A DNA stretch of 33,639 nucleotides, from the IMG/VR virus record IMGVR_UViG_2718218449_000004; one strand, written 5' to 3'. This DNA comes from a virus. Its lineage: Duplodnaviria; Heunggongvirae; Uroviricota; Caudoviricetes. Positions 7,839-9,062 of this stretch are shown in pieces (within the stretch, counting starts at the first letter, position 1; the number at the start of each line of letters is the position of its first letter). The notes beneath the pieces are model-generated. The model did not search any database, had not been told where the DNA came from, and saw only the letters and a list, made by a program, of their open reading frames with translations. The position numbers and the translations under genes are program-made.

Positions 7839-9062
7839 ATGAGCATGGTTGAATGGATAAGCCACGAGAAAAAAGATAGCCTGATACTATTTGTACATGG
7901 ATTAAATGGTGGTTTGGAAACATGGAACTTTAATAAAGAAACTTCATTTCCAAAACTATTAGCAGAAGATGAAGACATTGGCAATGTATTTGATATTGCA
8001 TGTTTCAATTATTTCACCAAATTTACACAAACGTATGCTAAAACGTCAGGATTATGGGCTCGTATTTTCTCTAAGAAAAATAAGTTAGAGAGAAATTTAC
8101 CAACTGATGAAATAGCTGAGTTATTGTATACTGAGATTAGGGTAACGCTAAGTGATTACTCTCGAATTATAATAATCGCCCATAGTATGGGGGGGGTAAT
8201 ATCAAAAAATCTAATTCTAAAAAAAGTTGAGCATGAGGAACAATCTAATATAATTGGATTCATTTCGTTAGCAGTCCCTCACTTTGGTGCTAAATTGGCG
8301 AATATAACTTCAATGGTATCTTCAAATGCTCAGTTAGTAGATCTTGGATTGTTAAGTGAAGCGACCGATACGTTGAATAGGCGCTGGATAAATTGTAGCA
8401 AAAAACTTCCTATCACTAGATATGTTTATGGTTCTCATGACACTATAGTTGATAAAAAAAGCGCATTACCGATGGATAGTGAACGAAATAACTCAATTGC
8501 AGTTAATGAAGGGCATAGCTCAATTTGCAAGCCCGAAAACAGCTCGTCTACAGTGTTTGTTGCGGTAAAGCAATTTATTCAGCAGATAAATTTAGAAGCA
8601 CCCAAGAAGATATGTGTTGAGCGTTTTTCTGATGAGAAACAATATGATAATGAGTATTTCGTCTTAAAAATGATTGTCGCAGATATACATCAGGATATCG
8701 CTATGCATGCAAAGGAATATTATTATAATGCTGAGCTTGCGAGAAATATTTTTACGAGTGATTACGATAGGAAACTACTTGGTCATTTGTATTCTAAAAT
8801 AAGGGAGATTTACCAGGAAGAGTATGAGCAATATATCGCGAATTCAATTTCCCCAGATAAATTTATTGCTGCTGTTCATAGACGAATAGCCCAAGAGGAT
8901 AAGTCGTCGTTAGATTCTCTTATAAAAAGTTTAGAAACGATACATAAGAAAGGAATGTTGCATCAACTGGCTAACAAAAATGACAGGGATATTGTCTGGT
9001 CATCTGAAACCAGCGTAGAAACTTTGGAGCAATTACGGCGAGGTAATCATGAAGAAAAATAA
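7839..9062 (+). CDS. Alpha/beta-hydrolase-fold protein (lipase/esterase-like, DUF676/PGAP1-like N-terminus) with a C-terminal helical domain; candidate defence effector (LmuA-like)
   Basis: 407 aa. LILFVHGLNGG near the N-terminus and nucleophile elbow IIIAHSMGG (Ser116); candidate triad Ser116/Asp201/His226. First gene of an AT-rich operon at the tin/old position. Confidence 0.6.
   Translation: MSMVEWISHEKKDSLILFVHGLNGGLETWNFNKETSFPKLLAEDEDIGNVFDIACFNYFTKFTQTYAKTSGLWARIFSKKNKLERNLPTDEIAELLYTEIRVTLSDYSRIIIIAHSMGGVISKNLILKKVEHEEQSNIIGFISLAVPHFGAKLANITSMVSSNAQLVDLGLLSEATDTLNRRWINCSKKLPITRYVYGSHDTIVDKKSALPMDSERNNSIAVNEGHSSICKPENSSSTVFVAVKQFIQQINLEAPKKICVERFSDEKQYDNEYFVLKMIVADIHQDIAMHAKEYYYNAELARNIFTSDYDRKLLGHLYSKIREIYQEEYEQYIANSISPDKFIAAVHRRIAQEDKSSLDSLIKSLETIHKKGMLHQLANKNDRDIVWSSETSVETLEQLRRGNHEEK

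Follow-up and report, generated by a model that had tools for sequence, protein, structure and literature searches.

A putative lipase-type effector of a three-gene Lamassu system in the P2 defence hotspot of an Escherichia coli O157:H7 prophage sequence

The locus raises the question of what role a lipase/esterase-type alpha/beta hydrolase plays when its gene is carried beside an SMC-like ATPase in a P2-like prophage, and on which substrate such an enzyme would act. The window (33,639 nucleotides, the whole stretch of viral DNA that was analysed) contains an open reading frame, lmuA, at positions 7839-9062 of the plus strand. It encodes a protein of 407 amino acid residues and is matched by WP_000063136.1, a RefSeq CDS of E. 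coli O157:H7 TW14359. In a preliminary description, the product had been taken for a hydrolase effector followed by a C-terminal adaptor domain, and a lipid-directed effector had been considered unusual for systems built on SMC-like sensors.

The three consecutive ORFs at 7839-11528 were compared with models of known defence systems. The PADLOC LmuA model matched the product of 7839-9062 at 3.5e-108, and the PADLOC Lamassu models spanned the full lengths of all three ORFs. The second gene, lmuC (9049-9561, plus strand), encodes the middle component (MC4) of 170 amino acid residues, which was matched by PADLOC LmuC PDLC03869 (1.5e-52) and by Pfam MC4 (5e-27; 95.3 bits, cut-off 28.1); its first 14 nt are shared with the end of lmuA. 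The third, lmuB (9558-11528, plus strand), overlaps lmuC by 4 nt (ATGA) and encodes a short SMC/Rad50-like ATPase sensor of 656 amino acid residues, matched by PADLOC LmuB PDLC03862 at 1.5e-235. When LmuA was searched against Pfam, residues 10-208 were matched by DUF676, PGAP1, LCAT and Abhydrolase_1, and residues 265-389 by CTD8 (ABC-3C; E 1.7e-35, 122.5 bits, cut-off 27.6). Both the CTD8 and the MC4 matches exceeded the gathering thresholds, and NCBIfam gave sub-threshold matches only. Two domains of LmuA were deduced: an N-terminal DUF676/PGAP1-like alpha/beta-hydrolase ('lipase') domain (residues 1 to about 262, positions 7839 to about 8630, plus strand), and a C-terminal helical CTD8 adaptor domain (residues 265-389, positions 8631-9005, plus strand). 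Since two further PADLOC LmuA models matched the C-terminal part alone (residues 262-390 and 290-381), this part is evidently a module that LmuA has in common with other LmuA proteins carrying different effector heads, as the adaptor proposed earlier would be. In the RefSeq annotation of TW14359, lmuA is named 'ABC-three component system protein', and the genes that follow are named 'ABC-three component system middle component 4' and then 'AAA family ATPase'. Judged by its sequence, lmuA is the lipase-type effector gene of a three-gene Lamassu (ABC-3C) system, lmuA-lmuC-lmuB. The gene family, the domain architecture and the role as a Lamassu effector are already known from Pfam, PADLOC, RefSeq and recent papers. 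The full-length families of PHROGs v4, one for each protein of 7839-11528 (phrog_1846, phrog_1894 and phrog_1637), all carry the label 'unknown function', so the Lamassu system would be missed by phage annotation pipelines based on PHROGs. Membership of LmuA in the CapV-type patatins was also considered and was rejected, because the protein is an alpha/beta hydrolase with a Ser-Asp-His triad and the patatin family was absent from its Pfam matches.

The motifs expected of an SMC-like ATPase were located in LmuB: a Walker A motif (G33..G38-K39-S40), a signature motif (S527-GGLRT), a single zinc hook (C337-P-V-C340) and a deviant Walker B motif (LLIFD560-T), in which Thr follows Asp560 instead of Glu. 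A deviant Walker B of LmuB has been noted before (bioRxiv 10.1101/2025.03.14.643221). All of these motifs were invariant in four aligned LmuB proteins (that of the window and three at 40-50% identity), and residues about 198-480 gave coiled-coil matches to SMC/Rad50/ASRP models. The match to the solved Salmonella LmuB (9hqu) was marginal (E 0.057), with CPVC aligned to CPMC. By its length, its hook and the effector beside it, LmuB would belong to the short (about 600-700 residues) zinc-hook type that accompanies a lipase LmuA, as in clade H. Transmembrane-like segments were found in none of LmuA, LmuC and LmuB, so that all three are probably cytoplasmic, and no signal peptide was found in LmuA.

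To what extent the active site of LmuA is preserved was examined in an alignment of 115 sequences (114 homologues, 39-94% identity) from Enterobacteria, Pseudomonas, Aeromonas, Shewanella, methanotrophs and one Flavobacteriaceae MAG. The VHGLNGG motif near the N-terminus and the nucleophile elbow AHSMGG, both pointed out in the preliminary description, were confirmed at residues 19-25 and 114-119, respectively. The candidate triad named there, Ser116-Asp201-His226, was likewise borne out: Ser116 lies in the context IIIAHSMGGVI, Asp201 in GSHDTIV and His226 in NEGHSSICK. Six residues, H115, S116, G118, G119, D201 and H226, were invariant across the 115 sequences, as was the motif S143-LAVPH148-x-G150, and the H20-G21 oxyanion motif was kept in 114. 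All three motifs of the triad lined up in the alignment with RavL (PDB 7x2p). The codon of the nucleophile Ser116 (8184-8186, plus strand; 115/115 invariant) corresponds to the Ser of AHSRGG in RavL, that of the triad acid Asp201 (8439-8441, plus strand; 115/115) to the Asp of 'EDAI', and that of the triad base His226 (8514-8516, plus strand; 115/115) to the His of 'HGHLSI'. A motif set of this kind lies far beyond chance.

The fold was predicted with AlphaFold2. The model of LmuA had a mean pLDDT of 71, and most 10-residue blocks of the hydrolase core averaged 84-97. In the model, HG follows the strand 14-19, Ser116 stands between the strand 109-115 and the helix 117-132, Asp201 comes after the strand 192-198 and His226 after the strand 219-222. 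The catalytic residues are thus in the canonical alpha/beta-hydrolase order in the predicted structure. The helical C-terminus of about 170 residues that had been described earlier was also recovered, residues about 238-380 being entirely helical; when the C-terminal domain was modelled alone, its mean pLDDT was 54. Two stretches, residues 61-85 (8019-8093) and 147-171 (8277-8351), had a pLDDT below 50, and the second of these holds the invariant or nearly invariant residues P147, H148, G150, S161, Q165 and L169. A mobile lid is one possible role for them, a surface masked by LmuB/LmuC another.

A profile derived from the alignment was then compared with the PDB sequences. It returned the lipases RavL (4e-7) and BlEst2 (3e-5), and also GPI inositol deacylase, group XV phospholipase A2 (LPLA2) and LCAT; no solved structure of a lipase-type LmuA or LmuC was found by sequence search. 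By this comparison, the nearest characterised relatives of the LmuA hydrolase act on lipid acyl esters. Together with the PADLOC LmuA and DUF676/PGAP1 matches, these relatives support the earlier proposal of a lipase/esterase-type hydrolase as the effector.

Relatives of the hydrolase were also found in a different protein context. On the Bacillus cereus plasmid NZ_CP115305, a 1,333-residue NACHT protein (3959-7960) has an N-terminus that is 32% identical to residues 13-261 of LmuA and keeps all catalytic motifs. The recurrence of the hydrolase head as the N-terminus of a NACHT (STAND-type) protein marks it as a portable effector module. The NACHT gene adjoins a nucleotidyltransferase-domain/HEPN gene pair.

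Loss of the catalytic residues in homologues had been named earlier as the mark of a pseudo-enzyme, that is, a protein in which the fold would serve as a scaffold only and killing would be brought about by something else. Such a reading of LmuA is extremely improbable. The Ser, Asp and His and the GxSxG elbow stay invariant, with HG kept as described, down to about 40% identity, the same motifs persist in the NACHT-fused copy, and the catalytic His was required in a homologue that has been tested (PMC12663957). Given the conserved triad, the canonical topology of the model and the lipase relatives, a pseudo-enzyme is excluded as far as sequence allows.

An active hydrolase could nevertheless have a lethal substrate other than bulk membrane phospholipid. 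LmuA would then still be the Lamassu effector, with a different ester or thioester as its target; candidates include acyl-ACP and acyl-CoA, acylated proteins, small-molecule esters, and a lipoprotein or lipid-A precursor. Many chemistries are known among alpha/beta hydrolases with a triad of the LmuA type, and below the top two, the structural neighbours at near-equal score were carboxylesterases, feruloyl esterases, type II thioesterases, acyl-CoA hydrolase and C-C hydrolases. LmuA also lacks a membrane-binding or transmembrane segment, and in the Lamassu literature covered, the substrate of a Lamassu lipase is unreported. We regard this alternative as rather unlikely, the preferred reading being an acyl-ester hydrolase that acts most likely on phospholipids.

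The gene order of the cassette was compared with that of related loci in other genomes. The order of hydrolase-CTD8, MC4 and an ATPase of about 660 residues was kept in Pseudomonas aeruginosa, Methylomonas, Yersinia and B. cereus, and the lmuA-lmuC-lmuB synteny is conserved across Proteobacteria and Bacillus. The P. aeruginosa copy adjoins an OLD-TOPRIM ATPase/UvrD helicase pair and Fic and NERD genes, the Yersinia copy lies in an integrase/AlpA/DUF3987 island, and the copy on a B. cereus megaplasmid shows 35% identity.

The position of the cassette in the prophage was determined from its borders. The window over the cassette region was 100% identical to many E. coli O157:H7 chromosomes, for example those of TW14359 and SS52. 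On the left, the border is P2 gene A, which encodes the replication endonuclease (5467-7749, plus strand; RefSeq annotation at the 100% identical TW14359 locus; GC 52%), and on the right it is the P2 portal gene Q (11846-12880, minus strand; RefSeq 'phage portal protein'). Beside the right border, between lmuB and the portal gene, lies the 19-mer GGCGAGGCGGGGAAAGCAC (11658-11676, plus strand), which we take to be the P2 cos cohesive end; it had one exact match in the window and none in 100 shuffles. If the 19-mer is indeed the cohesive end, no further cargo separates the Lamassu cassette from cos. The cassette (7839-11528) therefore sits between gene A and cos/portal gene Q of a P2-like prophage, and its GC content is 33%, as opposed to 52-53% in its neighbours. 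Previous work has defined the hotspot for anti-phage cargo of P2 as the interval from gpA to gpQ, adjacent to cos (Rousset 2022; PMC9122126), and SMC-containing cassettes are included among the contents in the legend to the hotspot figure (PMC9122126). The cassette occupies this published P2 defence hotspot.

Several further observations were made around the hotspot. Gene A and lmuA are separated by 89 nt, and an AT-rich palindrome (AACAATA-TGT-TATTGTT) was seen there at 7774-7790; it could form a small hairpin or bind a regulator. A scan for consensus promoters around the cassette gave 13 sites, compared with 17.6 expected from shuffled sequence. The left prophage junction is present in the window, with host yegS (1-900, minus strand) and yegR (1246-1623, plus strand) followed by a P2-type integrase (1888-2901, minus strand), in agreement with the TW14359 annotation. 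In another part of the prophage, the region 23586-26977 carries a tail-fibre gene and an assembly gene on the plus strand, then, on the minus strand, a second tail-fibre-assembly gene and a Gp53-like C-terminal fragment of a tail fibre, with a serine recombinase (Resolvase + HTH_7; 26378-26977) after the fragment. A 27-nt inverted repeat (24400-24426 and 26302-26328, 81% complementary) flanks the segment, in which the GC content drops to 47-49%. It looks like an invertible host-range switch of the Mu G-segment or P1 C-segment type.

The distribution of the cassette was examined in bacterial and phage genomes. It was found in 96 of 5,426 complete E. coli genomes, in single copy and always in the chromosome, and 84 of the 96, mostly O157:H7, carry it at an identity of at least 99%. 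In 50,697 phage records, DNA matches were confined to the portal flank and tblastn gave none, so that the cassette is known only from prophages. A diverged copy was seen in E. coli B REL606 (NC_012967), where the cassette, at 97.3% identity, lies in a decayed P2-like prophage with a truncated portal gene. When the REL606 locus 4211-4745 was aligned with window positions 9040-9570, a 2-bp insertion ('TG') was found in lmuC after about position 9096 of the window, which causes a frameshift and leaves two short ORFs. The Lamassu system is probably dead in REL606 as a result of this frameshift. The B-derived strains AS19-RrmA-, B-DolR and B-LamR carry the cassette at 97.4% identity.

A distribution of this kind, nearly clonal in the 84 genomes and within a pathogen prophage, would also suit a role other than defence, either in lysogenic conversion or virulence of O157:H7, as a lipase locus, or as an addiction module that does no more than stabilise the prophage; some cargo of the P2 hotspot does serve other functions, cytolethal distending toxin and partition systems being examples (PMC9122126). 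We consider this highly improbable. LmuA carries neither a signal peptide nor a transmembrane segment, LmuC and an SMC-like ATPase accompany it throughout, in unrelated bacteria and also where the neighbouring genes are defence genes, and anti-phage activity has been demonstrated for a homologous E. coli system (PMC12663957). The defence reading is preferred, and by analogy with that homologous lipase Lamassu, anti-phage protection would be expected of the cassette at 7839-11528.

How the effector might be controlled was considered in the light of the published Cap4-nuclease Lamassu systems and one E. coli lipase Lamassu, from which the mechanism proposed here is drawn by analogy. In the Cap4-type systems of Salmonella and V. 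cholerae, two folded LmuB together with LmuC sequester the C-terminal oligomerisation domain of a monomeric LmuA (10.1101/2025.03.14.643221); the liberated LmuA forms a cyclic tetramer, which is the active nuclease and causes cell death (10.1101/2025.03.14.643221; PMC12663957). Lamassu has been shown to sense DNA ends and phage origins (PMC12663957). We consider it probable that lmuA is a Lamassu effector gene in the P2 cargo slot, whose product is released by the sensing of phage DNA and kills through the hydrolysis of acyl esters, likely those of phospholipids. In the uninfected lysogen, a LmuB dimer and LmuC would hold monomeric LmuA by its C-terminal domain, with the hydrolase switched off. 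When an invading phage exposes LmuB to its DNA ends or replication intermediates, a conformational change of LmuB would set LmuA free, and the freed protein would self-associate through its CTD, which would switch the hydrolase on. LmuA would then cleave acyl-ester bonds, most likely those of inner-membrane phospholipids, from the cytoplasmic side, and the infected cell would die before the phage matures. Both the resident P2 prophage and the lysogens as a population would be protected by such an abortive infection.

Some details of activation may differ for lipases. According to AF3, lipase LmuA carrying CTD8 or CTD9 would form dimers and larger rings, not tetramers, and the authors of the preprint regard activation driven by oligomerisation as unproven for non-nuclease effectors (10.1101/2025.03.14.643221). 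It is possible, though we think it unlikely, that lipase LmuA works as a cyclic oligomer of a different size, is activated directly at the membrane, or hydrolyses a specific non-phospholipid ester (such as a thioester or ester of an acyl carrier or lipid precursor). In any of these cases the mode of killing would be without precedent among SMC-like immune sensors, and residues 61-85 and 147-171 of LmuA would be a regulatory lid kept shut by LmuB/LmuC.

The cassette is of interest because O157:H7, a major lineage of pathogens, naturally carries this lipase Lamassu in a prophage, and a naturally frameshifted lmuC allele of it is available in E. coli B REL606. It could be used to settle the substrate of the lipase effector and its mode of activation.

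The closest known system is the E. coli Lamassu 'Ec-Lipase' (short Lamassu, clade H; Haudiquet et al. 2025, PNAS), which has been validated experimentally (PMC12663957). It protects against lambda-vir and needs K42 of LmuB (the Walker A Lys) and H215 of LmuA (the catalytic His), it is toxic when overexpressed unless LmuA H215 is mutated (H215A), and 7 of 9 mutations in predicted interfaces abolish its activity (PMC12663957). In view of this validation, and of other hydrolase or lipase LmuA types that have been described, the opinion in the preliminary description that a lipid-directed effector is unusual beside an SMC-like sensor is outdated; a review also names alpha/beta hydrolases among the Lamassu effectors and the membrane as a target (PMC10586767). 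Like Ec-Lipase, the cassette comes from E. coli and combines a lipase-type LmuA, LmuC and a short LmuB with one CxxC zinc hook. Unlike Ec-Lipase, for which the residues are H215 and K42, it has H226 and K39, and a His at position 215 was found in none of the 115 aligned CTD8 homologues. As the numbering H215/K42 does not fit H226/K39, Ec-Lipase is a different homologue. The locations differ as well, the cassette being in the P2 hotspot and an Ec-Lipase-like variant in P4 hotspots (PMC13586616).

With V. cholerae DdmABC and Salmonella LmuACB (9NY5, 9NYG, 9NXX, 9hqu), the cassette shares the LmuA-LmuC-LmuB architecture and the deviant Walker B. The Cap4-nuclease Lamassu systems are comparable in that the effector is tethered by its C-terminal domain, DNA ends are sensed and infection is abortive. 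The effector itself is different: that of the Cap4 Lamassu is a DNA nuclease (cyclic tetramer), whereas the one encoded here is a predicted serine hydrolase that has no nucleic-acid-related domain, and the CTD of type 8 and the LmuC of type MC4 also set the cassette apart from the Cap4 Lamassu.

CBASS CapV and patatin-like phospholipases provide a precedent in which sensor-activated hydrolysis of lipids destroys the membrane and aborts infection. CapV uses a patatin Ser-Asp dyad and a cyclic-nucleotide ligand, in contrast to the Ser-Asp-His triad of LmuA and its proposed release from an SMC-like complex. LmuA may act in a manner similar to CapV, outside the patatin family. The lipases RavL (7x2p, Legionella) and BlEst2 (6wpx, Bacillus licheniformis) are 14-18% identical to LmuA. 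Both lack a CTD8 domain and an SMC-like partner.

The ABC-3C classification of Krishnan, Burroughs, Iyer and Aravind (2020) is reportedly the source of Pfam CTD1-12 and MC1-8. Within this class, the cassette is a straightforward member that shows no difference, with CTD8, MC4 and the RefSeq names in agreement, and all of the defining features of Lamassu/ABC-3C that can be read from sequence were found in it.
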